In this document: one piece after another, positions 4,466-17,670 of the stretch
Layout of the letters: every line of letters starts with the position of its first letter
Numbering within the stretch: the first letter of the stretch is position 1
Origin: an uncultured Photobacterium sp.
GTDB taxonomy: Bacteria > Pseudomonadota > Gammaproteobacteria > Enterobacterales > Vibrionaceae
Length of the DNA: 24,000 nucleotides
Direction of reading: 5' to 3'
Assembly: GCA_947039005.1 (NCBI GenBank)
Contig: CAMQXY010000013.1
Span: 21,003-45,002 of the forward strand
The notes under the pieces: model-generated
Databases searched by the model: none
What the model was told of the DNA's origin: nothing
Seen by the model: only the letters and a program-made list of their open reading frames with translations
Position numbers and translations under genes: made by a program

Positions 4466-5164
4466 ATGAAAAAAAGTATTATTGCTATAGCGATTGCTGG
4501 TTTAGTGCTTGTTGGTTGTGATCAAGCAAGCCACGATTCGGCAAAAGAATCTACGGCTTCAGTAAAAGCAACAACGACACAAGTAAAAGACGATGCTGTT
4601 AGTACAACGGATACAACGCTTAATTCAACCAAGCAAGCACTAACAGATTCTGCCGATGCTGTAAAAGATACAGCGGATAAAGCAGTTGATAAAGCCACAG
4701 AAGCTAAAAATAATGTAGCAGACAGTTCTGATTCGGCAGTAGAAAATACAGAGAAAACTGTTTCAGATTCAGCTAATGCTATAGAGAATAAAGCCTCTGA
4801 GCTAAAAGATAATGCCACGGATGCAGCCTCTGATGCTGTTGATGCATCTAAAGATGCTGCTAGTGATGCGGTTGATGCGTCTAAAGATGCAGTCAATAAT
4901 GCAACAGATACGATGAAAAATGCAGCGAGTAATGCTTTAGATAAAGCAACTGAGATGAAAGACGCGGCAATGGATAAAACTAAATCAGCGGTCAGTGATA
5001 CAACTGATGCGGTGAAAAATGCCGCGAGTAATGTTGCAGATAGCGCAACAGATATGAAAGATGCCGCGATGGATAAAACTAAAGCAGCAACTAATGATGC
5101 GGTTGATATGATCAATAAATCTGTTGATTCAGCAGAGAAGAAAGCATCTGATTATATAAAATAA
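4466..5164 (+). CDS. Lipoprotein built from ~15 tandem 11-residue repeats (group-3 LEA-like / apolipoprotein-like amphipathic repeat protein)
   Basis: Start moved to ATG 4466 (AGGAG at 4456-4460, 5-nt spacer). MKKSIIAIAIAGLVLVGC is a signal peptide with a lipobox. The mature part is composed almost entirely of A, D, S, T, K, N, V, E with a strict 11-residue period (DKAVDKATEAK, DASKDAASDAV twice, DKTKSAVSDTT, DSATDMKDAAM and so on). Confidence 0.8.
   Translation: MKKSIIAIAIAGLVLVGCDQASHDSAKESTASVKATTTQVKDDAVSTTDTTLNSTKQALTDSADAVKDTADKAVDKATEAKNNVADSSDSAVENTEKTVSDSANAIENKASELKDNATDAASDAVDASKDAASDAVDASKDAVNNATDTMKNAASNALDKATEMKDAAMDKTKSAVSDTTDAVKNAASNVADSATDMKDAAMDKTKAATNDAVDMINKSVDSAEKKASDYIK
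4820..4885 (+). repeat. In-frame tandem 33-bp repeat (2 units, encoding DAASDAVDASK twice) inside the LEA-like gene
   Basis: gatgcagcctctgatgctgttgatgcatctaaa is followed directly by gatgctgctagtgatgcggttgatgcgtctaaa. The differences are mostly synonymous. Confidence 0.9.
4916..5113 (+). repeat. In-frame tandem 99-bp repeat (2 units, 3 x 11 codons each) inside the LEA-like gene
   Basis: aaaaatgcagcgagtaatgc...atgaaagacgcggcaatggataaaactaaa at 4916 recurs as aaaaatgccgcgagtaatgt...atgaaagatgccgcgatggataaaactaaa at 5015, a period of exactly 99 nt. Confidence 0.85.
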
Positions 5165-5266
5165 TCAATAAGATACAGTAGTAAGTAATAAAAAAGATTA
5201 ATATTGACGTTAAGATGCCGAGTATTATCAATGCTCGGTTATTCTTTTTTTCACAAGGAGTTTACG

Positions 5267-5707
5267 GTGAAAAAAAAATGTTTATTGGTCGCTATGGTCG
5301 TACTTGCATTAGCGGGGTGTGATCAAGCTAAAACCAATGATAGTGCTTCTGTTGCAAAACAAACCGAAGTACATAATGCACAAAACTCACTAGATTGGAT
5401 GGGCGAATATACTGGCATTCAGCCTTGTGGTGATTGTTCTGGCATTGAAACCAGCTTAACCTTAAATAAAGACGGTAGCTTTGTTTTAAATGAAACCTAT
5501 CAAGGTAAAGATACGAAGCCGTTTGTTAATAAAGGTAAGTTTAAGTGGAATGATCGTGGTGATACTATCACGCTAAATCTTAGCGGCAGTCAATCAGTGA
5601 AGTATTTCGTTGGTGAGCATCGTATTTTCCGACTAGACCAACAAGGTCAGCGTATAAAAGGTGATTTAGCTGACGCTTATACGCTTACGCAAAATGACGA
5701 TAATTAA
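5267..5707 (+). CDS. NlpE N-terminal-domain lipoprotein (CXXC copper/envelope-stress sensor domain only)
   Basis: Start moved to GTG 5267 (AAGGAG 5255-5260, 6-nt spacer). VKKKCLLVAMVVLALAGC carries a lipobox. QPCGDCSGIETSLTLNKDGSF matches E. coli NlpE LPCADCEGIETSLFLEKDGTW. The protein ends after this domain, so the NlpE C-terminal domain is absent. Confidence 0.8.
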   Translation: MKKKCLLVAMVVLALAGCDQAKTNDSASVAKQTEVHNAQNSLDWMGEYTGIQPCGDCSGIETSLTLNKDGSFVLNETYQGKDTKPFVNKGKFKWNDRGDTITLNLSGSQSVKYFVGEHRIFRLDQQGQRIKGDLADAYTLTQNDDN

Positions 5708-5718
5708 TTTTTAAGAAA

Positions 5719-5772
5719 ATGCTCTGAAGTCTCTTTTTATTGGTTAATAAGAGAGATATCAGGGCATTTTTT
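5719..5772. terminator. Bidirectional Rho-independent terminator between the convergent nlpE-like and LysR genes
   Basis: ATGCTCTGA..TCTCT pairs with AGAGA..TCAGGGCAT (one G-U wobble). It is followed by TTTTT on the plus strand and preceded by AAAA. Confidence 0.7.
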
Positions 5773-5815
5773 ATTGCCTCATGTAAGTAAAAGCCACTTT
5801 TTTAGTTTTGTTTCA

Positions 5816-6721
5816 TTATTGTGAGCGTTCAATTTCTTCATCTACCCAACGTAATAATTGTTTGATAGCGCGTGATAACACTTGATTTTGACGGACTATA
5901 TAACCAAGGCTGGTGGTCGGGAAATGTGGTAATGGTGTAATGGTTGTTTGTAGATGTAATTTCGAGTGCAATGAAAAACTCGGTACAATAGCGACCCCAA
6001 ATCCTGCTTCAGCCCAATCTATTTGAGCATCGACACTACCAACCTCCATCACATGATATTTAGCAAGTTGTAAGCTAGGTAAGGCCAAATCAATTAATTC
6101 GCGAGTACGGGTATCATGGCCTAATAAGATTAATGTTGGTTCTTCTGCTGCGAGAGGCTGTGATTCAATAATGGCTGCGGGATCATGAGATAATTGTTGC
6201 CAGCGCTCTAAGCCGTTGCCTAATGCACACCATTTAACCTGACGCAGCTCCATAAAATGCAATGGTTGACTTTCTTTTTGGGCAATCACAAACCCTAAGT
6301 CAGCTTTGGCACTTTTTACCAGTTCAGTAGCCTGTGACGAGGTGGTATTAAAAAGTGATAAATCAATACCTGGATATTCTTTTTTAAATGCTTGGAAGGG
6401 ACTGATAAGTAATAACCGCGAGATAATATCACTGGCTGCAATAGTCAGTGTGCCTTGGTTGAGTTCGTTAATTGCATTCAGATCCGCCTGACAGACCTGT
6501 AATTCCATTAAGGTGTTTTCGGCACTTTTCAGTAATCTTTCGCCCGCTTGGGTTAACCTGAATGGGTTTCTTTCAATTAATTTTACTCGGGTTGTTTGTT
6601 CTAATTGTTTAATATGAAGACTGACATTAGGCTGAGTCATATGAAGAAAAGCGGCTGTCTTCCCAAAATGTTTATGTTTAGAAAGTGCAACGAATGTATT
6701 AAGCCAATGTAAATCTACCAT
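5816..6721 (-). CDS. LysR family transcriptional regulator (divergent from the purA paralogue)
   Basis: The N-terminal segment LHWLNTFVALSKHKHFGKTAAFLHMTQPNVSLHIKQLEQTTRVKLIERN is a LysR HTH. The ORF is 301 aa, with an AAGAAGGT RBS just upstream of ATG 6721-6719. Confidence 0.9.
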   Translation of the reverse strand: MVDLHWLNTFVALSKHKHFGKTAAFLHMTQPNVSLHIKQLEQTTRVKLIERNPFRLTQAGERLLKSAENTLMELQVCQADLNAINELNQGTLTIAASDIISRLLLISPFQAFKKEYPGIDLSLFNTTSSQATELVKSAKADLGFVIAQKESQPLHFMELRQVKWCALGNGLERWQQLSHDPAAIIESQPLAAEEPTLILLGHDTRTRELIDLALPSLQLAKYHVMEVGSVDAQIDWAEAGFGVAIVPSFSLHSKLHLQTTITPLPHFPTTSLGYIVRQNQVLSRAIKQLLRWVDEEIERSQ

Positions 6722-6895: not shown

Positions 6896-8152
6896 ATGTC
6901 GTCTATTGTTGTTGTTGGTGCTAACTGGGGTGATGAAGGTAAAGGTCGGATTGTTGATTATTTAGCAGACCAAGCTTCAGCGAGTATTCGTTTCCAAGGT
7001 GGTAATAACGCAGGTCACACTGTTGTTAACGATTTTGGTACTTTTAAACTACACCAGTTACCAAGCGGCGTATTTAACCCTGATTGTATCGCTGTTTTAG
7101 GCCCTGGTATGGTTATCAGCCCAGAGAAATTAAGCCTAGAAATCGAAGAAGTAGCAACATCAGGTGTTGAAGTTAAACTTTGCATCTCAGATCGTGCCAC
7201 ATTATGTCTACCATTACACGCACTAGAAGATACCCTAGAAGAATTACGTCTAGGTGACGGTGCTTACGGTTCAACACGTCAAGGTATCGCACCTGCATAC
7301 GGTGACCGTGTAATGAAGAAGGGTATTCTTGTTGGTTGGTTAAATCAGCCAGAAGTACTTCTTGAGCGTATTCAATTCATGATGGATTGGAAATTGCCAC
7401 AGCTTAAAGCGTTATATCCTTCAATGGAGTTCACGCAAACAGCTGAAGAAATGACAGAGTGGCTACTTGAAGTGTCTCAACCTTGGCGTGACAGCATTTG
7501 TAACGTTACTGAGCCACTAAAAGCGTTACAAAAAGAAGACAAAACATTATTGTTTGAAGCACAGTTAGGTGCGGGTCGTGACTTAGTTTACGGTGAATAC
7601 CCATGGACAACATCATCTAACGTGACTGCAGCTTATGCAGGTATCGGTAGTGGTTTACCAGCACTTCACCCTGAGCGTGTTATTGCTGTTGCTAAATCAT
7701 TCAGTTCTTCAGTAGGTACAGGTACGTTGATCACCGCAATGGAAGATCAAGACCAATTCCGTGAAGATGCTAAAGAGTTCGGCGCAACAACTGGCCGTCC
7801 ACGTGATATGGGTTACTTTGATGCAGTAGCAACACGTAATGGTGTTGAACTACAAGCAGCAACAGAAATCGCATTAACTAAGATTGACTGTTTAAGTGGC
7901 ATGAAAGATCTTAAGATCTGTGTTGCTTACAACGGTGACCACACTGAAAACCCAATTTGGCCTCAAACTGCATCTCTAACAGCAGTTTATGAGCAAATGA
8001 TGGGTTGGGATGAAGACATTACGGGTTGCCGTAAGTTTGAAGAACTACCAGAAGGTGCACAACAGTACGTACTTCGCATTGAAGAACTAATGGGTGTTCC
8101 TGTTAAAATGGTATCAGTAGGTCCAGAGCGTGACCAAATGATCCTACGTTAA
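6896..8152 (+). CDS. purA: Adenylosuccinate synthetase, divergent second-copy type (PurA2-like)
   Basis: 418 aa. GANWGDEGKGRIVD, FQGGNNAGHTV, YPWTTSSN, EFGATTGRPR, LTKIDCLSG and VSVGPERDQMILR align with E. coli PurA QWGDEGKGKIVD, YQGGHNAGHT, YPYVTSSN, EFGATTGRRRR, LTKLDVLDG and ISTGPDRTETMILR. GAGGAG RBS at 6882-6887 with an 8-nt spacer. The strong ggt/cgt/tac/gac codon bias differs from the neighbouring genes. Confidence 0.9.
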   Translation: MSSIVVVGANWGDEGKGRIVDYLADQASASIRFQGGNNAGHTVVNDFGTFKLHQLPSGVFNPDCIAVLGPGMVISPEKLSLEIEEVATSGVEVKLCISDRATLCLPLHALEDTLEELRLGDGAYGSTRQGIAPAYGDRVMKKGILVGWLNQPEVLLERIQFMMDWKLPQLKALYPSMEFTQTAEEMTEWLLEVSQPWRDSICNVTEPLKALQKEDKTLLFEAQLGAGRDLVYGEYPWTTSSNVTAAYAGIGSGLPALHPERVIAVAKSFSSSVGTGTLITAMEDQDQFREDAKEFGATTGRPRDMGYFDAVATRNGVELQAATEIALTKIDCLSGMKDLKICVAYNGDHTENPIWPQTASLTAVYEQMMGWDEDITGCRKFEELPEGAQQYVLRIEELMGVPVKMVSVGPERDQMILR

Positions 8153-8175
8153 TCGTAGCGTAATCAAAAATTATA

Positions 8176-8211
8176 ACGGGCGAGTTACTTAGTAACTCGC
8201 CCGTTTTTTTT
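8176..8211 (+). terminator. Rho-independent terminator of the purA paralogue
   Basis: ACGGGCGAGTTAC tta GTAACTCGCCCGT forms a 13-bp perfect stem, followed by TTTTTTTT. Confidence 0.9.
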
Positions 8212-8574
8212 ATAAGAATGATACACAATTAACCTCGAAGCTATTTTCCCGCAGTAATACAGCACATCTACTACCATATCACTTGCCGTTTGTAACGAAA
8301 TCTGAGGTAAAGACTCATCAATCGAGTGGCAGCCTTTTTATTGTTGTTAGCAAGAGAATTAACAAGATAATTATACCAATCCCATTAATTAAGTGGTTAT
8401 CTTTCAAAGCATTAGATTCTCTATCGCCCTCGCGGGCATTCACTGTAGGGAATGACGAAAGGGGAGGCATTAAATGAAGTCAGAAACTTATTGTGATTGG
8501 TATTAATATGATGTTATGGGGTTTTGTGAGCTTAGTAGCGTATTAAGTGTGAGGTGCTTATGGGGAAGGTGTTA

Positions 8575-8608
8575 TAGATAGCAAATATAGATAAGTATTT
8601 GCTATCTA
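8575..8608 (-). terminator. 3' stem-loop just downstream of the PTS IIA gene (possible terminator or mRNA-stabilising hairpin; no clean U-tract)
   Basis: TAGATAGCAAATA-N8-TATTTGCTATCTA forms a 13-bp perfect stem, 8 nt beyond the IIA stop codon on the minus strand. Confidence 0.4.
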
Positions 8609-8616
8609 AAAGAAGA

Positions 8617-8976
8617 TTATTTTTTTAAGAGGGCTTGTTCTAATGCATATAAACGACGATTTTGTTTAATCATTTTCTGAATTAATTCACGCTCAGATAA
8701 TGTTGTCATTAAGTGATCTTGTGCATGCACCATAATCATACTAACCGTCATTTTTTCACCACAGATTTCTTTGCGGATCAATTCTGTCTGTACTTCATGG
8801 GCTTTAAGTACGCTTTCATTGCACTTTTCCATCATAGAGAGAGCGCCATCAAAATCACCGTCTTCAGAGAGACGCAACCCTTCATAAGCATAACCTTTAG
8901 CTTCACCTGAATAGCTTACGATAGAAAAAACAATTCTTTCTAGATCTTCATTTATATCAACGGTTGCTGTTGTCAT
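8617..8976 (-). CDS. PTS lactose/cellobiose-family EIIA component
   Basis: 119 aa. The helical-bundle pattern and C-terminal MIMVHAQDHLMTTLSERELI match E. coli ChbA LVLVHAQDHLMTSMLARELI, which contains the phosphorylatable His. AAGGA RBS upstream of ATG 8976. Confidence 0.85.
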   Translation of the reverse strand: MTTATVDINEDLERIVFSIVSYSGEAKGYAYEGLRLSEDGDFDGALSMMEKCNESVLKAHEVQTELIRKEICGEKMTVSMIMVHAQDHLMTTLSERELIQKMIKQNRRLYALEQALLKK

Positions 8977-9049
8977 TAGTATTCCTTTACATCAGTAGAG
9001 TTTTTTATTTTGATGGATAGAGATTAGCATGAATTTAAATTAGCTCTAT

Positions 9050-9086
9050 AAAACTTCATTTCACAAATTACGTGAAATGAAGTTTT
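9050..9086. promoter_or_regulatory. Perfect 15-bp inverted repeat (AAAACTTCATTTCAC-N7-GTGAAATGAAGTTTT): candidate operator/activator site of the divergent PTS promoters
   Basis: Arms at 9050-9064 and 9072-9086 are exact reverse complements. The repeat ends one base before a TTGACG -35-like hexamer. It is the longest perfect palindrome I found in any promoter-containing intergenic region of the window. Confidence 0.5.
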
Positions 9087-9087
9087 G

Positions 9088-9116
9088 TTGACGGAATAAA
9101 TAAAAATATTATTAAT
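9088..9116 (+). promoter_or_regulatory. Putative sigma70-type promoter of the IIB gene (and possibly downstream genes)
   Basis: TTGACG (9088-9093), a 17-nt spacer, then ATTAAT (9111-9116), about 40 nt upstream of ATG 9155. Confidence 0.3.
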
Positions 9117-9154
9117 AGTGTTGTTTTTATATTTAAATGACTAAGGAAAGTGTG

Positions 9155-9490
9155 ATGAATATCTTATTAGTATGCGCTGGTGGATTCTCTACGACCATGA
9201 TGATGGAAGAGATGAAGAAAACTATTAATAAAAGTGAAAAATTAAACATCGAAGATTTTGTTATGGAAGCTATTCCTGTTGATCGTTTACCTGAAAAAAT
9301 AGAACAGTTCGATGTTATTTTGGTTGGTCCACAACTTGGTCATAAATATATTCAAATCAAAAAAACATCAGATGAAAATAATAAACCCTCTGTACTGTTA
9401 ACTGCTGAAATATATGGCTCTATGGATGGTGCAACAGTGTTGAAACAAGCATTAATCGCACACAAAAAACATCAAATGGCGGCAGTGTAA
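9155..9490 (+). CDS. PTS lactose/cellobiose-family EIIB component
   Basis: MNILLVCAGGFSTTMMM contains the active-site Cys in the position of E. coli ChbB IYLFCSAGMSTSLL, and VILVGPQLGH corresponds to VVLLGPQIAY. Start moved to ATG 9155 (AAGGAAAG at 9143-9150). Confidence 0.85.
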   Translation: MNILLVCAGGFSTTMMMEEMKKTINKSEKLNIEDFVMEAIPVDRLPEKIEQFDVILVGPQLGHKYIQIKKTSDENNKPSVLLTAEIYGSMDGATVLKQALIAHKKHQMAAV

Positions 9491-9528
9491 TCTTTCTTTA
9501 TGATCTTTTCTCATTAAGAATAAATAAC

Positions 9529-9557
9529 AATGAGCCTAATTAACAGGCTCATTTTTT
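9529..9557 (+). terminator. Canonical intrinsic terminator located between the IIB and IIC genes (internal attenuator?)
   Basis: AATGAGCCT aattaac AGGCTCATT forms a 9-bp perfect stem with a 7-nt loop, followed by TTTT. It lies 39 nt after the IIB stop and 36 nt before the IIC start. Confidence 0.7.
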
Positions 9558-9592
9558 AGATGCTTTGATCTACGAATATAAAGGTTATTGAA

Positions 9593-10936
9593 ATGAGTGT
9601 ATTTGCTAGTTTCGAAAGACTGATTGGTCGGGTATTAGTACCGATTGCTGAAAAAATAGATAAACAAGTTCATTTAAGTGCGGTTAAAAAAGGGATGGTC
9701 GTCTTAACGCCTATCCTTTTATTAGGTTCAATGGCATACCCACTTAAAGCCTTAAAAAATGTTTTTTCAGACTCGGTTGCTGTGCAAGAGTGGTTTGTTA
9801 ATAACGTATATCTAATTGATTTATTGATTAAATTCTCGCTTGGTTTTATTGCTATTTATACTGTTATTTCTATCGCTTTCTTCCTCAGTGAAGGCTATAA
9901 AATCTATACGGTTGGTGCGATAGCCTTATCATTGTTTGCCTTTTTGATAATGACGACCTCGGTTAATCCTGATGGTTCATTAGACGTGACATTCTTTGAT
10001 TCTAAAGGCTTATTTACGGCTATTTTTATTTCGATAGCTTGTGTGGAAATATACCGTTTCTTCACAAAAAATAAGCTTGTTATAAGAATGCCTGAAGGTG
10101 TGCCTGACTTTGTTTCCAGCTCCTTTGAATTAATCACACCGACCGCGTTTATTGCAGTATTATTTCTTTCTCTACGTTATTTTATTGCTGATATGACAGG
10201 TGGTTTATTATTGCCTGAAATTGTAATGGATGTATTAGCTCCAGTTGTTGGCAGTTTAGATAACTTATTAGTGGTATGGTTTGTTATTTTACTTCGTTTA
10301 TTATTTTGGTTTTTTGGTATTCACTCTGCAGTATTAAGCCCTATTCTTTCACCTGTTTTTGTGCAGTATTTATCTGAAAACATTGCGGCTAAACAGATTG
10401 CTGCTGAGTTACCTCACTTTGTGACAGGCGGAACATTTTCGGCATTCGTAAACTTTACGGGATCCGGTGTGACCATTGGTTTAGTTATTGCGATGATGAT
10501 CGCAAAAACGCAACGTTATAAAAAAGTAGGGCAGGTATCTTTAGTTCCAAGCTTATTTGGTATTAACGAACCCGTATTATTTGGTGCGCCAATTATACTT
10601 AACCCAATATTATTTATTCCGTTTGTGATCGGCGGCTCATTAATTGGTATTTTTCCATTAGTGCTTATGAAGTATGGCTTCTTAGCAAAACCATTTTTTG
10701 ATCCTCCGTACTTACCGTTATTCTTTGAAGGTTATTTAACTGGCTTTGACTGGAAAACACCGTTTGTTCAAATGGTACAAATCATGGCGTCATTCTGTGT
10801 TTATTACCCATTCTTCCGTGTAATGGATAAGCAAGAAATGGTACGTGAAGAAAAGCTAAAAGCTGAAACAGAAAAGAAATCAGTATTTAGTAAAAAAGAC
10901 GAAGAGTTATTAGACGAGCTCGGTCTCGATTTTTAA
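9593..10936 (+). CDS. PTS lactose/cellobiose-family EIIC permease
   Basis: 447-aa polytopic membrane protein. LLFWFFGIHSAVL and GINEPVLFGAPIILNPILFIPFVIG match E. coli ChbC LLWFFGIHGALAL and [25 protein letters not shown]. Confidence 0.9.
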   Translation: MSVFASFERLIGRVLVPIAEKIDKQVHLSAVKKGMVVLTPILLLGSMAYPLKALKNVFSDSVAVQEWFVNNVYLIDLLIKFSLGFIAIYTVISIAFFLSEGYKIYTVGAIALSLFAFLIMTTSVNPDGSLDVTFFDSKGLFTAIFISIACVEIYRFFTKNKLVIRMPEGVPDFVSSSFELITPTAFIAVLFLSLRYFIADMTGGLLLPEIVMDVLAPVVGSLDNLLVVWFVILLRLLFWFFGIHSAVLSPILSPVFVQYLSENIAAKQIAAELPHFVTGGTFSAFVNFTGSGVTIGLVIAMMIAKTQRYKKVGQVSLVPSLFGINEPVLFGAPIILNPILFIPFVIGGSLIGIFPLVLMKYGFLAKPFFDPPYLPLFFEGYLTGFDWKTPFVQMVQIMASFCVYYPFFRVMDKQEMVREEKLKAETEKKSVFSKKDEELLDELGLDF

Positions 10937-10967
10937 ATGCGAATAGCACCACATTACAGAAGTGATA

Positions 10968-12068
10968 ATGATGAATATGTTGAATATAACAACTTACAGC
11001 GATCAATTTGATGCTTTATTAGTGACGGATACCATTAATAAACGTTATCTAACACAATTTACAGGCAGTGGTGGTTACCTTCTTATGACCGCTGAAAGTA
11101 AAGAATTATTGGTTGCTGGTAAATATGTTGAACAGATTTTTTTGCAAAGTCATGATTGTAATGTGGTGTGTACTGATCACCTTGGTTTGATTGAAACATT
11201 AAAGCAACGCTTAGCACATCACGGCATTCAGCGTCTTGGCATCGAGGCGAACGCATTGAGTTATGCCATGTTTTGTCAATTAGATGAAAATCTATCTCAA
11301 ACATTGGTTGCTACAACTGAGATTATTGAAACATTACGCCAACAAAAAACAGATTCAGAATGTGTTTTGATTAAAAAAGCGTGTGCGATTACTGAGCAAG
11401 CGATTGAACATGCTTTAACGCGTTTCACCCCTAATATGACAGAAAAAGCATTAGGGTTATTGATTGAATTTACTGCGCGAGAATTAGGCGCTGATGATAT
11501 TGATTTTTTGATTGTCGTGTCAGGTAAAAGGGGGGCATTACCTCATGGTCGTCCTAGTGATAAACCGATTTTGATGGGGGAATTAGTCACTATTGATTTC
11601 GGGATTGTTTATCGTGGTTATCATTCTGATGTTACGCGCACGTTTGCTGTTGGAGAAATTAGCCATCAGTTACAGCATATCTATGATGTTGTTTTTCAAG
11701 CGCAACAATTGGGCGTGAGTATGTTGGGGATAGGTGTCGCAACTCAAGATATTGATACTGCGGTACGTAATTACATTCAAGAGCATGGCTATGGTCAGTA
11801 TTTTATTCATGGCTTAGGTCATGGCGTTGGTTTACAAGGGCACGAAATTCCATTTTTAAATCAGCATCAAAATACAGTGTTACAGCAAGGTATGATCGTA
11901 ACAATTGAACCGGGTGTATATATTCCAAACGTTGGTGGTGTACGTATAGAAGATACCTTGTTGATCACTGACAGTGGGGCGGAAAGTCTGACTCATCTTC
12001 CTCGACAATGTCGAGATATCACACAAGATTTTTGTGTTCCCGTTCAGATAGGAGTGCCGAATAAATGA
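10968..12068 (+). CDS. M24B family Xaa-Pro-type aminopeptidase (YpdF-like)
   Basis: GKRGALPHGRPSDKPILMGELVTIDFGIVYRGYHSDVTRTF, HGLGHGVGLQGHE, IVTIEPGVY and GGVRIEDT form the pita-bread metal-ligand set. The sequence is collinear with E. coli YpdF ([40 protein letters not shown]...GGVRIED). The start is ambiguous among GTG 10962 and ATG 10968, 10971 and 10977. Confidence 0.85.
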   Translation: MMNMLNITTYSDQFDALLVTDTINKRYLTQFTGSGGYLLMTAESKELLVAGKYVEQIFLQSHDCNVVCTDHLGLIETLKQRLAHHGIQRLGIEANALSYAMFCQLDENLSQTLVATTEIIETLRQQKTDSECVLIKKACAITEQAIEHALTRFTPNMTEKALGLLIEFTARELGADDIDFLIVVSGKRGALPHGRPSDKPILMGELVTIDFGIVYRGYHSDVTRTFAVGEISHQLQHIYDVVFQAQQLGVSMLGIGVATQDIDTAVRNYIQEHGYGQYFIHGLGHGVGLQGHEIPFLNQHQNTVLQQGMIVTIEPGVYIPNVGGVRIEDTLLITDSGAESLTHLPRQCRDITQDFCVPVQIGVPNK

Positions 12069-13114
12069 ATACCGATCTAATGATGTCACTGACTAATGCT
12101 CATGGACCTTCTGGGCGAGAAGATGAAGTACGAAGTGTGCTTTATCATGCATTAAATGAGGTTGCTGATGAGATCAGTTTTGATGGTCTTGGCAGTATTA
12201 TTGCTCGTTTAAATTCACAGGCGCAAGGACCTAAAGTTGCTATTATTGCGCATATGGATGAAGTGGGATTTTTAATTCAACATATTACCAATGATGGTTA
12301 TTTGAAGTTGTTTAAATTAGGCGGTATTGATCCGCTTATTGCATTAAACAGTGAAATTGAAATTAAAACCCGTTCAGGTAACAAATATCATGGGATTGTT
12401 TTTACAGATAAGCCATTAGCTCACTTAACAATGGATGATCTGTTTGTTGATATTGGCGCAAGTAACAAAGCTGCTGTGGTTGATATGGGTATAGAAATTG
12501 GTGATAGCGCTGTTTTTGCAACCCGTACGCGTGAATTGAATCATAGCGGTAATTATATCGCAAAATCATTTGATGATCGGATTGGATGTTTGCTTGGCGT
12601 TGAGTTAATGCATGCTTGTGCACTGCAAAAATTAGATTGTGATTTGTATTTTATTGGTAGTGCTCAAGAAGAAGTGGGCACGAAAGGCGGTAAAACAGCC
12701 ACAGAAATGCTGCGTCCTGATATTGTGATAGTACTTGATGTTGCATCGACTAAACATACACCCAACCATCACACTGAAAGACGGGTATATGGTCAAGGAC
12801 CTTGTCTTGTTGTGGCGGATAAATGTGCATTAGCAAACTACCCTTTATTGAATTATGTCAGTGATGTGGCACAAAGCCATAGCATTGCGGTTCAGCGTGA
12901 CTTTTTAGCGGGGGGAGGGACGGATAATGGTGCTGCAACGTTAGTGGGATCGGGCATTGCGGGTTTGGCTATTATCTTACCGGTTAAAAATTGTCATAGT
13001 CCTTATACATTAGTGAATGGAAATGACTATAAAAGGTGTTTATCTCTATTAAGTCATACCGTTAATGGTCTTAATCCTGCAATAGTCGCTAGTTTATATA
13101 ACTATGGTCTATAA
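12065..13114 (+). CDS. M42 family aminopeptidase (YpdE/FrvX/SgcX-like; often mis-annotated as endoglucanase CelM)
   Basis: LTNAHGPSGREDEVR, AHMDEVGF, FDDRIGC and SAQEEVGTKGG are the M42 motif series. Its ATG 12065 overlaps the TGA 12066-12068 of the M24 gene (ATGA overlap). Confidence 0.85.
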   Translation: MNTDLMMSLTNAHGPSGREDEVRSVLYHALNEVADEISFDGLGSIIARLNSQAQGPKVAIIAHMDEVGFLIQHITNDGYLKLFKLGGIDPLIALNSEIEIKTRSGNKYHGIVFTDKPLAHLTMDDLFVDIGASNKAAVVDMGIEIGDSAVFATRTRELNHSGNYIAKSFDDRIGCLLGVELMHACALQKLDCDLYFIGSAQEEVGTKGGKTATEMLRPDIVIVLDVASTKHTPNHHTERRVYGQGPCLVVADKCALANYPLLNYVSDVAQSHSIAVQRDFLAGGGTDNGAATLVGSGIAGLAIILPVKNCHSPYTLVNGNDYKRCLSLLSHTVNGLNPAIVASLYNYGL

Positions 13115-13125
13115 CCGCGCTCACT

Positions 13126-13151
13126 ATTAGGTACTTTCATTAGGTACTTTC
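13126..13151. repeat. Tandem 13-bp direct repeat (attaggtactttc x2) in the convergent intergenic gap
   Basis: Two exact adjacent copies at 13126-13138 and 13139-13151. Confidence 0.8.
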
Positions 13152-13152
13152 T

Positions 13153-13180
13153 AAAAAGGAGCAAGAGAATGCTCCTTTTT
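13153..13180. terminator. Bidirectional Rho-independent terminator between the M42 gene and the convergent regulator gene
   Basis: AAAAAGGAGCA agagaa TGCTCCTTTTT: a 6-bp GC-rich core flanked by an A5 run and a T5 run that also pair. Confidence 0.8.
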
Positions 13181-13192
13181 ATTCATCTTTAT

Positions 13193-14878
13193 TTATTGTT
13201 GATTGGTGTTTACTTGTTCATGTAATTGATGAACCGCCCGTAAATGCTTAACGTTATCAACATTAGAGATCATAATAATTTGTTTAAATTGTCGTTGTTG
13301 CGCATCAATGATGGGGGTTGTTAATTGTAAGTTTGTTACGGTGAGTTTTTTACTGTGAGATTGACATTTACCATGGCAGATCAGAACGTGATTTTCGACG
13401 AAATAGTCATGACTGTGTGCATATAATAATGAAAGTACGCCTTTTTTATATTCCGAAGTAACAAATTCTTTTTGCTCCATTTGATCGCATAGCCACTTAA
13501 TGGCTTCTGTTAATGAATTTGCCTGAGCTGTGGGTAATGTGTCGTTGATAGTGTAAGAAATTGTCATTAAATCGGCTAAATCACGATCATCAAAAACCAA
13601 TGTCTCAAAGCTATTTAAGGTATCGATAATAAATTGTTCGCAGTTTAAATGATGACTATTTTGTTGTGCGAGCCGCAATAGTTGGCTTAATGGAATTCGT
13701 GTCTTTTGGGCACGGTGAATCGCGTTATTGACTAATTCAGTGATATAGCTAACTTCTTCATCGCGTAGCGGCTCAACAAGATAATGTTGATATTCAGTAG
13801 TGATCCACTTTATTTGGTTAAATAAGCCATGACTTGCATTACTGTGATCAAAGGCGTGAAGCGTAAGGTTATTCTTAGCTCGATATACTGCCGTTGTTAG
13901 ATAGTTGATAATATCAGTTATTAAGCAGGTATCTGTGACTAAACTGAGTGATAATTTATTATCAACAATCGTTAACAGTTGATAAACAAAACTCTCTGCT
14001 TGAAATCTTTTTTCGAAAAAACTTTCAGTATTACAATTGCTTAAAAAGTATTCAGTTAAGTGTAATGCTTCGTATTTGTAAGAGGGCTGTTGCCATTGTA
14101 ATGCATGGCAAATAATCGGGTAGAGTTGTGTTAATTCTAAAAAAGCCCCATTATTTTTTTGTGCGATTAATGTTCGTTGTTCTATACGATGTAATGTGAT
14201 GATGAGATAAATAGTAAAAATATTTTTAAAATCAGTTTCGAGGCTTTTAGTGTACTGTTTCTCCATCATCTTAATACTATCAATCGCATGCTGAGTGTGA
14301 GTGCTTTCTATATAGTATTTAATTTCATTAAGGATATCTTGCTCATAAAAATAGGGCTTGGAAACAAAATGAATTTTATTATTTTTAAAGTAAAGATATT
14401 TACTGGTATAACACATTGTTAAGTAACGAATTTGCTTTTCTTTTCCGGTTACCGAAATACTATCACCACACAGGTTAATTTGTAGTGCTAATTGATTAAA
14501 TGTCTCATTGACGCGTTTGAGATCTTTATTCAATGTTGTATTACTGACTTTTAAATAATCACGAAGATGACTTAACTTTGGTGTTGGATGAAATAAAGCA
14601 ATAACGGCTATATATTCATCGCGTTCTTCTTTACTAAAAATAAAGTTACTGGCGCTATTATGGCTAAAGAAAAGAGTCGCATCATGCGAATACTGTAAAG
14701 CGCCATGATCTAATTCAATCAAAGGTAAAGATAATCGATCTAAATAAAAATTAATATTTTCAATGGCATATCGTATGTTTCTTGAACTCATATTAAAAAT
14801 AGTGGCTAACTCATTAATCGTTTTGGCGCTATGAATGAGATAGGTAACAATATCAAAGTGTTTTTTATTTAGGCTCAT
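13193..14878 (-). CDS. PRD-domain transcriptional regulator with N-terminal HTH domains and C-terminal PTS EIIA(Mtl/Fru-type) domain (FrvR/LicR/MtlR-like)
   Basis: MSLNKKHFDIVTYLIHSAKTINELATIFNMSSRNIRYAI aligns with the E. coli FrvR N-terminus MLNERQLKIVDLLEQQPRTPGELAQQTGVSGRTILRDI. A second Mga-like HTH follows (LSHLRDYLKVSNTTLNKDLKRV). The central His-containing helical PRD-like regions include IITLHRIEQ and NNAIHRAQ. The C-terminal HVLICHGKC...LTVTNLQLTTPI resembles an EIIA-2 phospho-His region (FrvR: LAIPHCW...FFITLAQPV). The track's TTG 14923 start is replaced by the first ATG, 14878. Confidence 0.75.
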   Translation of the reverse strand: MSLNKKHFDIVTYLIHSAKTINELATIFNMSSRNIRYAIENINFYLDRLSLPLIELDHGALQYSHDATLFFSHNSASNFIFSKEERDEYIAVIALFHPTPKLSHLRDYLKVSNTTLNKDLKRVNETFNQLALQINLCGDSISVTGKEKQIRYLTMCYTSKYLYFKNNKIHFVSKPYFYEQDILNEIKYYIESTHTQHAIDSIKMMEKQYTKSLETDFKNIFTIYLIITLHRIEQRTLIAQKNNGAFLELTQLYPIICHALQWQQPSYKYEALHLTEYFLSNCNTESFFEKRFQAESFVYQLLTIVDNKLSLSLVTDTCLITDIINYLTTAVYRAKNNLTLHAFDHSNASHGLFNQIKWITTEYQHYLVEPLRDEEVSYITELVNNAIHRAQKTRIPLSQLLRLAQQNSHHLNCEQFIIDTLNSFETLVFDDRDLADLMTISYTINDTLPTAQANSLTEAIKWLCDQMEQKEFVTSEYKKGVLSLLYAHSHDYFVENHVLICHGKCQSHSKKLTVTNLQLTTPIIDAQQRQFKQIIMISNVDNVKHLRAVHQLHEQVNTNQQ

Positions 14879-15141
14879 AACGTAATTAATTTCATCTCTG
14901 CATCGTTCATTCAAACGGAACAATAAAAAATTGAGTGCATAATGGCGTAATAACCCTACTAAAAATGAGATCTATTACACTAAATAATGAAATTATCAGT
15001 AAATTTTATAAATTATGAGAGAGTAAACACATTATCTATATCAAAGACTGAATGTAACAATTGTCATTGGTCGCAATATTATTGATCATTTAGGGTTACA
15101 TCAAAGGAAAAAGCGAGGATAATAATCGCCCTCTAGTGGTT

Positions 15142-15171
15142 CTCGCGGCACATCATGTAATGTGTGGCGAG
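15142..15171 (+). promoter_or_regulatory. Stem-loop in the 5' leader of the trmY-like gene (possible regulatory RNA structure or palindromic operator)
   Basis: CTCGCGGCACAT catgta ATGTGTGGCGAG gives 12 positions with 10 Watson-Crick pairs, one G-T wobble and one G-G mismatch. Flanking GCGAG (15113-15117) and CGCGCTAG (15177-15184) could pair alternatively with the 5' arm. Confidence 0.3.
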
Positions 15172-15218
15172 TGATTCGCGCTAGGATAAGAAAATTTTAA
15201 ACTGCTAGGATATTGATT

Positions 15219-15815
15219 ATGCGCGCTTTCGTATTACGAGCTCGTTCTGCTCCAACAGATAGTAAGATGTTGTTAGCTTCAGTTGGACAAGATGCTCACA
15301 CTGAGATTTTGGCTCACGTTTTAATGAATGCTATTTTTGTAGCGCAATCACATCGTGAAGATATTATGGTGCATTTAGTTCTTGAAAGTACTCAAGACTT
15401 CTCTCGCACTATTAGTTTTAATTCAAATGAGATCACTAATTTATCAGGCTTTCATGAGCAAGCTTGGTTGGATAAAATAGCGCATGCGTTAGATAAATCC
15501 ATTGGTATGAATAAAGAGCAATTGCGCAATGTTGAGCCTGGTATTTGTGTTCGTACGATTAGCTTTGAAAAGTTAGTCGGTGAGCTAGCAGAAGATTACC
15601 AATTATATATGCTCGATAAAAAAGGTGACTTTATTCGAGATATCGAGCTAGCTGCAAATCCCTGTTTTTTACTGACTGATCATATGCCGATGCCAAAGAA
15701 AAGTTTTAATAGTTTAAAACGTTTAGGCGCAGAAAAAATCAGTTTAGGGCCTAAGATGTTATTTGCATCTCAATGTATTGTACTGATACATAATGAGTTA
15801 GATTTAACGCTGTAA
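15219..15815 (+). CDS. TrmY-like SPOUT methyltransferase (DUF358; homologue of archaeal tRNA pseudouridine-54 N1-methyltransferase)
   Basis: MRAFVLRARSAPTD..., GICVRTISFEKLV, FLLTDHMPMPKK and ISLGPKMLFASQCIVLIHNELD are collinear with M. jannaschii TrmY as I recall it ([57 protein letters not shown]). AGGA RBS at 15207-15210 is 8 nt before ATG 15219. Confidence 0.8.
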   Translation: MRAFVLRARSAPTDSKMLLASVGQDAHTEILAHVLMNAIFVAQSHREDIMVHLVLESTQDFSRTISFNSNEITNLSGFHEQAWLDKIAHALDKSIGMNKEQLRNVEPGICVRTISFEKLVGELAEDYQLYMLDKKGDFIRDIELAANPCFLLTDHMPMPKKSFNSLKRLGAEKISLGPKMLFASQCIVLIHNELDLTL

Positions 15816-16209: not shown

Positions 16210-17670
16210 ATGCAATTATCCTCTCAGCCTAAAGGGCTTTTTCACCTCATTGCTATTCAGATGTGGGAATTCTTTAGTTATTACGGCATGCGGTCGTTAT
16301 TAATTCTCTTTTTGACTCAAAAACTTTTAATGTCTGACGATCATGCGTATGCCCTTTATGGTGCTTATACGTCGCTTGTTTATGTTACCCCGATTTTAGG
16401 TGGGTACTTAGCTGACCGTTATTTAGGTAACTATTGGTCGGTGATCATTGGTGGCTTATTAATGGTTGCTGGGCATGCTGTACTGAGTATTCCGAGTCAT
16501 GACAATACGGTGCTTTATGCTGCATTGGCATTGATTATTTGTGGTTATGGTTTTTTTAAAACTAACTCAAGCTGTTTATTGGGTGAGTTATATAAAGACC
16601 ATGAAGATGCACGTGAATCTGGATTTTCGATTTCCTACATTGGTGGTAATGTTGGTTCAGCCTTAGCACCTATCTTCTGTGGTTATGCCGCGAGTCGTTG
16701 GGGTTGGAATGTCGGTTTTGCCCTAGCGGGTATCGGTATGCTTATTGGTTTGATTATCTTTAGTACGGGTCGTAAGCACTTTGCGCATGTTCAAAAAGTT
16801 AATATCCCAGCATTACGTCAAAAAACGGCAGGTTTTCGTCACTGGCAACTGATTATTCTTGGCGTGATTGTATGTGCCATTGGTTTAGTTTTCGTATTAC
16901 AAAACTTGTTAGCGGGCTATATTCTTGCGGTTATTTTGGCATTCTCAGCCTTACAAATGCTACGTTTATACCGTAAAAGTAATATGGAAGATCGTAAGAA
17001 ACTGAATGCGATCATCTACTTTATGTTATTTGGTATGGTGTTTTGGGCGTTTGATCAGCAAGGTGGTAGTTCTATCAGCTTGTTCATTGAGCGTAATATT
17101 GATACTGATATCTTTGGTTACCATATCCCAACGGCATTTTTTCAATCAGTGAATCCTATCGCGGTTATCGTGGGTGGTGGTGCTGTTGCATGGTTATGGA
17201 AAGTATTGGCGTCACGTCAAATTTCAGTACGTACCTTAACAAAGCTTAATATGGGTTTGTTCTTGCTAACGGCAGGTTTTAGCTTAATTACTTTATCGTC
17301 TAAATTAGCGATGGTGAGCGGGCATACAACATTCTTATGGCTGTTCCTTGGTTTGTTCTTAATTGGTATTGCTGAGCTGTTTATTGACCCAGTAGCATTG
17401 TCTGCTATTACTCGTATGAATCCACAAGGTGCAACGGGTACGGTGGCAGGTATTTATATGTTAATGGGTGGTTCGGTTGCTAACTATTTAGCGGCGAATA
17501 TTGCAGAGCTAACCTCTACCGGTACGCAAGCAACCAATACTGCGGATTTGATTGCATCTGCCGCTCAGTATCACCATGTATTCCAATCAATCTTTATTGT
17601 AACAGTGGTAGTCTTTATTCTGGGTTTATTAGTGAATTTCAAAACCCGTAATGATCCTGAATACGATTAA
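16210..17670 (+). CDS. Proton-dependent oligopeptide transporter (POT/PTR2), DtpC/DtpD (YjdL/YbgH) subfamily dipeptide permease
   Basis: [62 protein letters not shown] and [15 protein letters not shown] closely parallel E. coli DtpC/DtpD ([60 protein letters not shown]). AGGAAA RBS. Confidence 0.9.
   Translation: [486 protein letters not shown]

Follow-up and report, generated by a model that had tools for sequence, protein, structure and literature searches.

Why a sugar transporter of the lactose/chitobiose (Lac/Chb) family of the phosphotransferase system (PTS) should stand in one gene cluster with two aminopeptidases and without a glycosidase is the question raised by a locus in the DNA examined here, a stretch of 24,000 nucleotides (nt) from an uncultured Photobacterium sp. 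(assembly GCA_947039005.1, contig CAMQXY010000013.1, positions 21,003–45,002), which we call the window and number from its first letter. In E. coli, the PTS-peptidase loci frv, fry and sgc and the PTS-lyase pair malXY have gone unexplained for decades. An earlier note on the window had described the cluster and proposed that the linkage between PTS and aminopeptidase is itself selected, a proposal that the survey reported below strongly supports. We interpret window positions 8260–14878, with moderate confidence, as a reduced yet functional copy of a catabolic module that is horizontally mobile. With a similar degree of confidence we propose that this module imports and phosphorylates a glycosylated amino acid or short peptide, which would then be trimmed inside the cell.

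Gene content of the cluster

All six open reading frames (ORFs) that the earlier note had assigned to the cluster were recovered where it had placed them, and every gene product matches its family well above the Pfam cut-off, so that its description of a PTS, two aminopeptidases and a regulator holds. The gene for enzyme IIA (EIIA) of the Lac/Chb family (8617–8976, minus strand, 119 amino acids (aa), PF02255, E 2e-30) is transcribed divergently from the remaining PTS and peptidase genes. These lie on the plus strand and encode EIIB of the same family (9155–9490, 111 aa, PF02302, E 1e-12), the Lac/Chb-family EIIC permease (9593–10936, 447 aa, PF02378, E 5e-43), a YpdF-like, Xaa-Pro-type peptidase of family M24B (10968–12068, 366 aa) with the domains Creatinase_N (PF01321, E 3e-18) and Peptidase_M24 (PF00557, E 1e-65), and a YpdE-like aminopeptidase of family M42 (12065–13114, 349 aa, PF05343, E 1e-75). 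A regulator of 561 aa is encoded convergently at 13193–14878 on the minus strand. The EIIB ORF opens at 9137 and translation probably starts at ATG 9155, which has a ribosome-binding site (AAGGA) and matches the N-termini of orthologues; the regulator ORF covers 13193–14923, and ATG 14878 is its probable start, giving an N-terminus (MSLNK) kept across orthologues. The M24B ORF opens at GTG 10962 and gene callers use ATG 10968; the gap between EIIC and M24, put at about 30 nt in the earlier note, is 25 nt to the former and 31 nt to the latter. The ATGA stop/start overlap of M24 and M42 is present at 12065–12068, and the phosphorelay motifs are intact, with the active Cys of EIIB in LLVCAGG and the putative phospho-His of EIIA, His84, in VHAQDH. 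Neither the cluster, as described earlier, nor the annotated flanks of identical contigs contain a glycosidase, deacetylase, kinase or isomerase.

Relative to the homologous locus of a sister species (L091, 84–86% DNA identity), the ratio of nonsynonymous to synonymous substitution rates is 0.08 for EIIA, 0.06 for EIIB, 0.017 for EIIC, 0.13 for M24, 0.085 for M42 and 0.10 for the regulator. These values (0.017–0.13) are similar to those of the housekeeping flanks, and all six genes are under purifying selection in this comparison. Identical proteins with the same synteny occur on metagenome contigs in ENA, and the 90%-identity cluster of the window EIIC includes Photobacterium leiognathi and P. 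lucens.

The transporter

EIIC passes the NCBIfam model of the Lac/Cel subfamily (TIGR00410, 278.6 bits against a cut-off of 236), and with this match and separate EIIA (His) and EIIB (Cys) proteins the window PTS has the features of a Lac/Chb enzyme II; EIIA also matches TIGR00823, at a score under the cut-off of that model. The sole solved homologue of EIIC that was found is ChbC of B. cereus (3QNQ, E 8e-55), with which the GIH and INE motifs of EIIC align. We take these motifs to include the His and Glu that adjoin the sugar 6-OH. EIIC nevertheless falls under the cut-offs of all the substrate-specific equivalog models, scoring 136 against 760 for chitobiose (NF007634), 279 against 434 for cellobiose (TIGR00359), 173 against 614 for lactose and 163 against 503 for NF007157. 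With the chb, cel and lic operons the window has in common the EIIA/EIIB/EIIC family, phosphorylation motifs aligned with ChbC and regulators of related architecture (LicR/MtlR type), but it differs from them in having no GH1/GH4 phospho-glycosidase and no ChbG, with the peptidases in the place of the glycosidase, and in an EIIC that fails the ChbC and CelB equivalog models.

These features bear on the simplest explanation of the locus, that it is an ordinary β-glucoside, chitobiose or cellobiose PTS served by a phospho-glycosidase from elsewhere in the genome, with the peptidases as passengers or with M42 itself acting as the glycosidase. A pass under the generic Lac/Cel model and retention of the His and Glu motifs are what such a transporter would be expected to display, and some database sources still label M42 proteins "endoglucanase", an old CelM annotation. 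Nonetheless we consider this explanation very unlikely, given the equivalog scores, the translationally coupled M24/M42 junction and a dinuclear aminopeptidase site that M42 keeps. A plain chitobiose or cellobiose operon was rejected as the leading interpretation on the equivalog scores together with the lack of glycoside hydrolase (GH) genes.

Distribution and conservation of the module

To place the cluster among its relatives, homologues of the M42 protein were traced to their contigs, with one genome per species scanned and the loci annotated by phmmer with the window proteins; the scan did not return the window's own species, and the locus counts are lower bounds and no census. The module was found in at least about 23 distinct loci, which differ in their flanks and in the order of their genes. 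Its carriers are Photobacterium, six Vibrio species, Cetobacterium, Brevinema, Sarcina/Clostridium, a Bacillaceae metagenome-assembled genome (MAG), Enterococcus, Carnobacterium and Romboutsia. The adjacency is not, as the earlier note had allowed it might be, confined to this strain. Most carriers are tied to animal gut or tissue, judged from organism and sample names alone.

In Vibrio renipiscarius, V. sinensis, V. fluminensis, V. scophthalmi, V. ichthyoenteri and V. marinisediminis (M42 64–67% identical to that of the window) the cassette is as in the window, and Cetobacterium (47–49%) has the same genes, with a regulator encoded on the same strand and a lyase gene after it. The order is regulator-EIIA-EIIB-EIIC-lyase-M42 in Sarcina/Clostridium MAGs (39–40%), EIIB-EIIC-M42-GntR in a Brevinema MAG (42%), EIIA-EIIB-EIIC-M24-M42-lyase in the Bacillaceae MAG (35%), regulator-EIIA-EIIB-EIIC-M24-M42-lyase in an Enterococcus MAG (33%) and likewise in Enterococcus gallinarum and Carnobacterium gallinarum, and regulator-M42-EIIA-EIIB-EIIC-M24-lyase in Romboutsia ilealis. 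An independent start from EIIC gave the same picture, as all three homologues sampled blind (57%, 48% and 59% identity) carry the module. No glycoside hydrolase lies within any contiguous module among these loci, and this includes phospho-β-glycosidases of GH1/GH4; ChbG is likewise absent from the contiguous modules.

M42 is present in every variant among the loci listed, and M24 is missing from several, including a Photobacterium-like variant (L093/L094, M42 69%) that together with the Brevinema locus (L020) represents a minimal form with PTS and M42 alone. The invariant core is thus the Lac PTS plus M42, to which M24, the lyase and PepT are accessory; the partnership of the PTS with an M24/M42 pair, as first described, is constant for M42 but not for M24. 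Identity of M42 to its counterparts in Vibrio, Cetobacterium, Sarcina and Brevinema is 66, 47, 40 and 42%, respectively, and about 33–35% in the Firmicute group, and that of M24 is 57 and 49% in Vibrio and Cetobacterium and 35–40% in Firmicutes and Romboutsia. The best-conserved component is EIIC, at 89, 72, 70 and 67% in Vibrio, Cetobacterium, Sarcina and Brevinema and 59, 57 and 48% in Carnobacterium, Enterococcus and Romboutsia. In Cetobacterium its 72% compares with 47–49% for the enzymes, and such conservation of the permease far beyond that of the enzymes points to a single defined transported substrate.

That the PTS-aminopeptidase adjacency is kept in at least about 23 loci of several phyla, in rearranged order and between different flanks, is the evidence that carries the case for selection on the linkage itself. 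It also counts against the disaccharide PTS with passenger peptidases considered above, since passenger genes would not be expected to survive such changes of gene order. In Brevinema, a GH4 gene that lies upstream of the module, at a distance of about 1 kb, might seem to supply the glycosidase for that explanation, but it is part of a separate unit with a Glc-family EIICB.

Among the loci inspected, no sugar-catabolic neighbour recurs beside the module. The V. renipiscarius module adjoins a Man-family PTS, a GH88 and other genes (L005, 1–5241), read as a glycosaminoglycan-utilisation type; that of Romboutsia adjoins PfkB, GntR, a weakly matching SIS-domain protein and a class II aldolase (L099, 27–3977), read as tagatose/aga-type. 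The E. gallinarum module lies next to an operon with a sigma-54 regulator, a Man-family PTS and a SIS-domain gene (L098, 1–3731), and that of Cetobacterium next to a glycyl-radical microcompartment locus (L006, 1–6675). The Brevinema variant has no detectable EIIA or PRD regulator and carries a GntR/UTRA regulator instead; it is located between the Glc-family EIICB and GH4 unit (L020, 3162–6094) and a pair of SBP_bac_5 and PepT genes (11012–13729). One contig labelled Sarcina sp. MAG_436 (L016) is of Cetobacterium type in gene content, order and sequences, its regulator and EIIC being nearest to those of Cetobacterium, and may be mis-binned.

The peptidases

The M24B protein has all five metal ligands (D212, D223, H287, E316 and E330), in a spacing that we take to be that of Pyrococcus furiosus prolidase. 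It is 39% identical to E. coli YpdF, proline dipeptidases and YpdF (5CNX) are its nearest relatives among solved structures, and it scores under the YpdF equivalog cut-off (255 against 393) as well as under that of PepQ.

The M42 protein matches PF05343 with 255 bits against a gathering score of 23.2. Residues H63, D171, E202/E203, D225 and H311 are present and do not vary across the alignment of its clade. From the TET/PhTET2 structures we presume these to be metal ligands and catalytic residues, and the protein is accordingly a member of peptidase family M42 with a predicted dinuclear aminopeptidase site. Its closest solved relatives are a YpdE orthologue (1YLO) and the TET aminopeptidases. 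The best NCBIfam model is that of YpdE (NF007421), with 291 bits against a cut-off of 412, compared with 681 for E. coli YpdE itself and 193 for the window protein on the FrvX model; the window M42 is YpdE-like and no YpdE equivalog. Identities are 33% to YpdE, 33% to FrvX and 29% to SgcX. In neighbor-joining trees YpdE pairs with the Lac-PTS-linked M42 of Romboutsia in 99% of 200 bootstraps, and the M42 proteins of Vibrionaceae, Cetobacterium, Brevinema and Sarcina form a clade with 98.5% support. All Lac-linked M42 proteins and YpdE fall into one clade at a weak support of 56%, with FrvX outside that clade and SgcX distant. The M42 homologues outside the module group (about 60 loci) have no Lac PTS linkage and frequently form triplets of M42 paralogues.

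Counterparts in E. coli, Fusobacterium and L. sakei

The earlier note had pointed to frvABXR, fryB-fryC-ypdF-ypdE-fryA and sgc as E. coli parallels built on other PTS families. The K-12 annotation bears this out, each locus having an M42 gene, and so do the family models, with Fry and Frv matching those of the Fru family and SgcC matching EIIC-GAT, against a Lac-family EIIC in the window. The closest parallel is fry, which has in common with the window the order EIIB-EIIC-M24-M42, the overlapping M24/M42 junction, the identities to YpdF and YpdE given above, YpdE as the best model for the window M42, and the pairing of YpdE with a Lac-PTS-linked M42 in the trees. It differs in its Fru-family PTS, in the fused EI-HPr-EIIA protein FryA and in having no adjoining PRD regulator; the window M42, moreover, lies under the YpdE equivalog cut-off, and monophyly of the Lac-linked M42 proteins with YpdE is weak. 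The frvABXR locus likewise combines, in one cryptic locus, a PTS enzyme II, an M42 protein (FrvX) and a large HTH/EIIA_2 regulator, but its PTS is of the Fru family, it has no M24 gene, FrvX lies outside the Lac-linked clade, and homology of FrvR to the window regulator is not demonstrable beyond the N-terminal helix-turn-helix (HTH). The peptidase pair thus seems, from these sequences, to have moved in company with permeases of more than one PTS family, which supports the view that the linkage is selected.

The malX-malY pair resembles the module in another respect, as a cryptic PTS permease paired with the lyase MalY without a glycosidase; the Vibrio module lyase is 53% identical to MalY. 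Its permease is a Glc-family EIICB, it has no peptidases, and the window itself has no lyase. In E. coli, malX-malY is controlled by the LacI-type regulator MalI. The family of the window regulator reaches Fusobacterium varium and F. ulcerans, with about 30% identity over 98% of the length (E 2e-64 for F. varium), and in F. varium (L102, 9001–13781) the homologue lies directly upstream of orthologues of malX (59%) and malY (47%). A palindrome similar to that described below for the window, AAAACTTTTTTTCA...TGAAAAAGT, stands upstream of the F. varium malX-like gene. This arrangement makes a PTS with a MalY-type lyase and no glycosidase a second recurrent pairing, one that has both the lyase and the regulator family in common with the Lac-PTS module.

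The arrangement is already on record, being common in public genomes and drawn, unexplained, by Kato & Oikawa 2018 (PMC5845896). The strain-specific 8-kb cluster of L. sakei LT-13, as far as that paper presents it, contains PRD protein(s), two aminopeptidases, Lac/Cel EIIA, EIIB and EIIC, an RDD protein and MalY, the last a pyridoxal 5'-phosphate (PLP) enzyme with cystathionine β-lyase and broad racemase activity (PMC5845896). By the gene content given there, not by comparison of sequences, it is a full version of the module; it differs from the window in having MalY and the RDD protein and in a regulator annotated as two PRD proteins. The searchable full-text literature yielded no functional study of frv, fry, sgc or the Lac-PTS/M42 module, and no published substrate of MalX/MalY. 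With the M24-M42 pair, the Lac-family version constitutes a coherent mobile module in bacteria of at least four phyla. The old puzzles of frv, fry and malXY are thereby made testable, through culturable carriers (E. gallinarum, C. gallinarum, L. sakei LT-13, V. scophthalmi, Cetobacterium somerae and P. leiognathi), a defined enzyme set, and a candidate regulator with a candidate operator.

Reduction of the Photobacterium copy

About 18 of the 23 loci of the lower-bound set add a PLP-dependent β-lyase of the MalY/PatB family, which has the class-I aminotransferase fold. The best match of the module lyase is TIGR04350, whose cut-off the Sarcina protein passes, and among solved structures E. coli MalY (1D2F) ranks first; all eight module lyases examined keep the PLP lysine and Tyr121. 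No PatB/MalY gene or remnant was found in the window (tblastn E > 0.3).

A second enzyme has left a trace. The sister species, whose M42 is 88% identical and whose synteny is the same, has an intact pepT gene of 413 aa downstream of EIIA, and its product is a bona fide PepT that passes TIGR01882. In the syntenic slot of the window, and in the right orientation, lies a remnant of the 3' end of a gene for this M20B tripeptidase, about 70 nt long (8260–8328, minus strand), with in-frame stops just upstream. Its translation LPQISLQTASDMVVDVL aligns with LPVPSLEAASDVVVDVI of the sister-species PepT at 65% identity over 23 aa (tblastn E 0.004), and positions 4924–6468 of the sister locus match just window 8211–8501. 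On this alignment, pepT is deleted in the window lineage and the remnant is a pseudogene fragment. There is a second indel on the other flank (window 15034–15188 versus 12962–13537 in L091), where the sister species has a DCC1-like gene (PF04134) between the regulator and trmY that the window does not have. A PepT gene is also found near the Brevinema module. The statement of the earlier note that the peptidase pair are the only enzymes is therefore right for the window and does not carry over to the module, since the condition is derived by local erosion: the module usually has a MalY/PatB lyase, and the sister species has pepT.

Proposed function

In the function that we propose, a conjugate of a hexose-type sugar with an amino acid or short peptide would enter through EIIC and be phosphorylated on the sugar by way of EI, HPr, EIIA (His84), EIIB (Cys) and EIIC. 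The most plausible source would be a β-glycosylated amino acid or a glycopeptide remnant from animal glycoproteins. Within the cell, amino-acid residues would be stripped from the free N-terminus by M42 and M24B, with PepT in the sister species, and in complete modules the MalY-type lyase would act on the amino-acid part that remains; in this Photobacterium the lyase step would be missing or supplied from elsewhere in the genome. The accessory enzymes M24B, PepT and the MalY/PatB lyases all require a free α-amino group on the amino acid or peptide that they process, and an aminoacyl- or peptidyl-sugar substrate, as the earlier note had suggested, is consistent with every new fact, the recurrent PepT and MalY-type lyase genes included. 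What the substrate is, in which order the reactions run, that the regulator activates and which residues are phosphorylated are inferences. Were the substrate a glycosylated amino acid or peptide, it would represent a new class of PTS substrate; the module might then reveal a non-hydrolytic removal of sugar from amino acids, and would bear on the use of host and dietary glycoproteins by gut and food-spoilage bacteria.

The position of the sugar divides this proposal. In one sub-reading it is linked to a side chain, so that the peptidases expose a glyco-amino acid from which the lyase, or an unlinked enzyme, frees the sugar. The frequency of the lyase and the existence of PTS-plus-lyase operons favour this version, whereas the minimal loci with PTS and M42 favour an amino acid linked through its carboxyl to an amino sugar.

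Several points weigh against the import and trimming of a glycosylated amino acid or peptide. A sugar linked to a side chain cannot be released by aminopeptidases on their own, and the loci with PTS and M42 only (L093 and Brevinema), like the lyase-less window, would need an unlinked enzyme. The MalY family is known for cleavage of C-S bonds, and we know of no demonstration that it cleaves O-glycosyl-serine. No gene that would process the sugar phosphate further is regularly found beside the module in the loci inspected, the searchable literature holds no substrate, expression or biochemical data for any member, and the gut and tissue association of the carriers comes from the names of organisms and samples.

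The lyase is given a larger part if it replaces the glycosidase. Here M42, M24 and PepT would first trim the PTS-phosphorylated conjugate to a free glyco-amino acid, and the MalY/PatB-type enzyme would then remove the sugar by β-elimination from O- or S-glycosyl Ser, Thr or Cys, yielding a sugar phosphate (or thio-sugar phosphate), pyruvate or 2-oxobutyrate, and ammonia, with O-GlcNAc or mucin-type glycopeptides of animal tissue as the likely source. We judge this chain of events to be quite unlikely. If true, PLP-dependent deglycosylation would be one explanation for fry (YpdE/YpdF), malXY and the Lac-type module alike, and the Photobacterium copy would be a reduced form relying on an unlinked lyase.

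The minimal loci suggest a different division of labour, in which M42 frees a sugar phosphate such as glucosamine 6-phosphate or galactosamine 6-phosphate by cutting a pseudo-peptide bond in an aminoacyl- or peptidyl-amino-sugar. The carboxyl group of the amino acid or peptide would be joined to the amino group of the sugar, or esterified to the sugar, and M24, PepT and the lyase would handle longer chains or the released amino acid. This deacylase activity, which the earlier note had offered as an alternative, seems to us possible but unlikely. M42 is the sole enzyme common to every variant, with PTS and M42 alone in L093/L094 and Brevinema L020, and with no glycosidase in any module an encoded hydrolase may be what breaks the bond between sugar and aglycone; the PfkB, weak SIS-domain match and class II aldolase next to the Romboutsia module, read as a tagatose- or amino-sugar-type set, would also suit it. 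The Romboutsia neighbourhood is, however, a single case, a dedicated β-lyase in about 18 of the 23 loci is left with no clear role, and we know of no abundant natural aminoacyl- or peptidyl-amino-sugar in animal-associated habitats.

Glycated rather than glycosylated amino acids were also weighed, as a module whose PTS would take up fructosamine-type (Amadori/Heyns) amino acids and peptides for the peptidases to trim. Food and the gut contain such compounds, and the operon beside the E. gallinarum module can be read as fructoselysine/glucoselysine type. That adjacency occurs in one genome only, however, and no deglycase or kinase is present in any module. A deglycase or kinase (SIS/FrlB, FrlD and GfrE/F types) is required in the known Amadori pathways, and the known PTS routes for these products use the Man family rather than the Lac family. 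We regard an Amadori/Heyns module as most improbable.

The regulator and its candidate operator

To the expression of the module the regulator would contribute as a DNA-binding activator with reduced PTS control. Its Pfam matches are Mga (PF05043, E 3e-9), HTH_11 (PF08279, E 8e-5) and EIIA_2 (PF00359, E 5e-8), and its layout comprises an HTH, an Mga winged HTH, two degenerate PTS regulation domains (PRDs) and an EIIA(Mtl)-like domain. The window regulator itself has no Pfam PRD match, and most orthologues have one. Alignment by hhalign with the HTH-Mga-PRD-PRD-EIIB-EIIA regulators of the same module in Firmicutes covers 500 columns with a probability of 96.7% and E 3e-10. An AlphaFold (AF2) model built from 41 homologues has a pLDDT of 82.9, and its top PDB folds are AtxA (4R6I), an E. 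faecalis Mga-family protein (3SQN) and MgaSpn (5WAY), over about 500 columns; the all-helical region 177–390 aligns with the PRDs of AtxA and the Mga-family structures, and the C-terminus matches EIIA-Mtl domains. By orthologues, profile comparison and predicted structure, then, the regulator carries two PRDs. The HTH-PRD-EIIA architecture given in the earlier note is accordingly seen in direct matches for the HTH and EIIA_2 parts, and for the PRD part just through these three routes.

By its predicted fold and its C-terminal match to EIIA-Mtl, the regulator belongs to the Mga/AtxA/MtlR-LicR structural class of DNA-binding regulators. It departs from members of that class at the phosphorylation sites. 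The canonical PRD histidines are mostly Tyr (Y224 and Y326, with Tyr for the usual His of PRD2), and only H273 of PRD1 is invariant; in alignments with EIIA domains the active His corresponds to H502 (in LICHGK), a position at which Cetobacterium and L093 have Tyr. An EIIB(Gat)-like Cys motif was not detected, the CSSGGG region of the Firmicute homologues being a gap in the window protein, which consequently does not combine a His in both PRDs with an EIIB(Gat)-like Cys, as the MtlR/LicR type does. Any PTS control that remains would probably act through His273 and His502. Of the label FrvR/LicR-type in the earlier note, the structural class holds up and the homology to FrvR does not. FrvR orthology was rejected, there being no NCBIfam match (NF007366), a blastp alignment of E 0.002 over 45 aa of the HTH, and an hhalign probability of 30% confined to the HTH region. 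An RNA antiterminator of the BglG/SacY type was rejected as well, since the N-terminus is a DNA-binding HTH and no Rfam or ribonucleic-antiterminator-like element was found; database names such as "antiterminator BglG" for orthologues reflect PRD content only.

A perfect 15-7-15 palindrome, AAAACTTCATTTCAC-N7-GTGAAATGAAGTTTT, occupies 9050–9086 in the divergent region between EIIA and EIIB, abutting a -35-like TTGACG (9088–9093). It is unique in the window, with no match in 100 shuffles. The sister species retains it, as do six Vibrio species, five of them showing a compensatory C/G swap in both arms; the V. ichthyoenteri copy has extra arm mismatches and that of Cetobacterium is shorter. In all Vibrionaceae orthologues GTTGAC follows directly after it. 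We regard the palindrome as a candidate operator for the regulator, which would drive expression from this site beside the EIIB -35 element. The putative promoter of EIIB-EIIC-M24-M42 (9088–9117, plus strand) consists of that -35 element, an 18-nt spacer and a -10 element TTAATA (9112–9117); it was read directly from the sequence and was not listed by a simple promoter scan.

A terminator-like stem-loop with a T-run (9526–9556, plus strand) stands between EIIB and EIIC and has no Rfam family match. Hairpins of unrelated sequence are found at the same junction in the sister species, several Vibrio and Sarcina (L008, 7184–7230), those of Vibrio without the T-run, and the structure may set the ratio of EIIB to EIIC by attenuation or transcript processing. 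Another terminator-like hairpin (13152–13181) separates M42 from the convergent regulator gene and has a 12-bp stem followed by TTCATCTTT.

Neighbouring genes

The flanks carry genes for a LysR regulator, a PurA paralogue, TrmY, a POT-family peptide transporter, a UbiB-like protein, a patatin, a hydrolase and DyP. The POT-family di/tripeptide transporter (16210–17670, plus strand) is encoded 1.3 kb downstream of the cluster, and its position is kept in the sister species, where the cassette content differs in that pepT is present; a connection with the module is improbable. Clustered at 90% identity, this transporter groups with proteins of Photobacterium phosphoreum, P. iliopiscarium, P. aquimaris, P. 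carnosum and others, which like the EIIC cluster places the window in Photobacterium. On the other side, a 418-aa protein of the adenylosuccinate synthetase family that resembles a PurA paralogue (6896–8152, plus strand, PF00709, E 7e-135) is adjoined by a divergent LysR regulator gene (5816–6721, minus strand). The PurA-like gene is 99% conserved in the sister species and is followed by a strong bidirectional terminator at 8175–8205. Finally, positions 15213–15815 (plus strand) encode a TrmY-type tRNA pseudouridine-54 N1-methyltransferase (NF002560, 229.7 bits against a cut-off of 183), a mainly archaeal enzyme that is present in this Photobacterium window.

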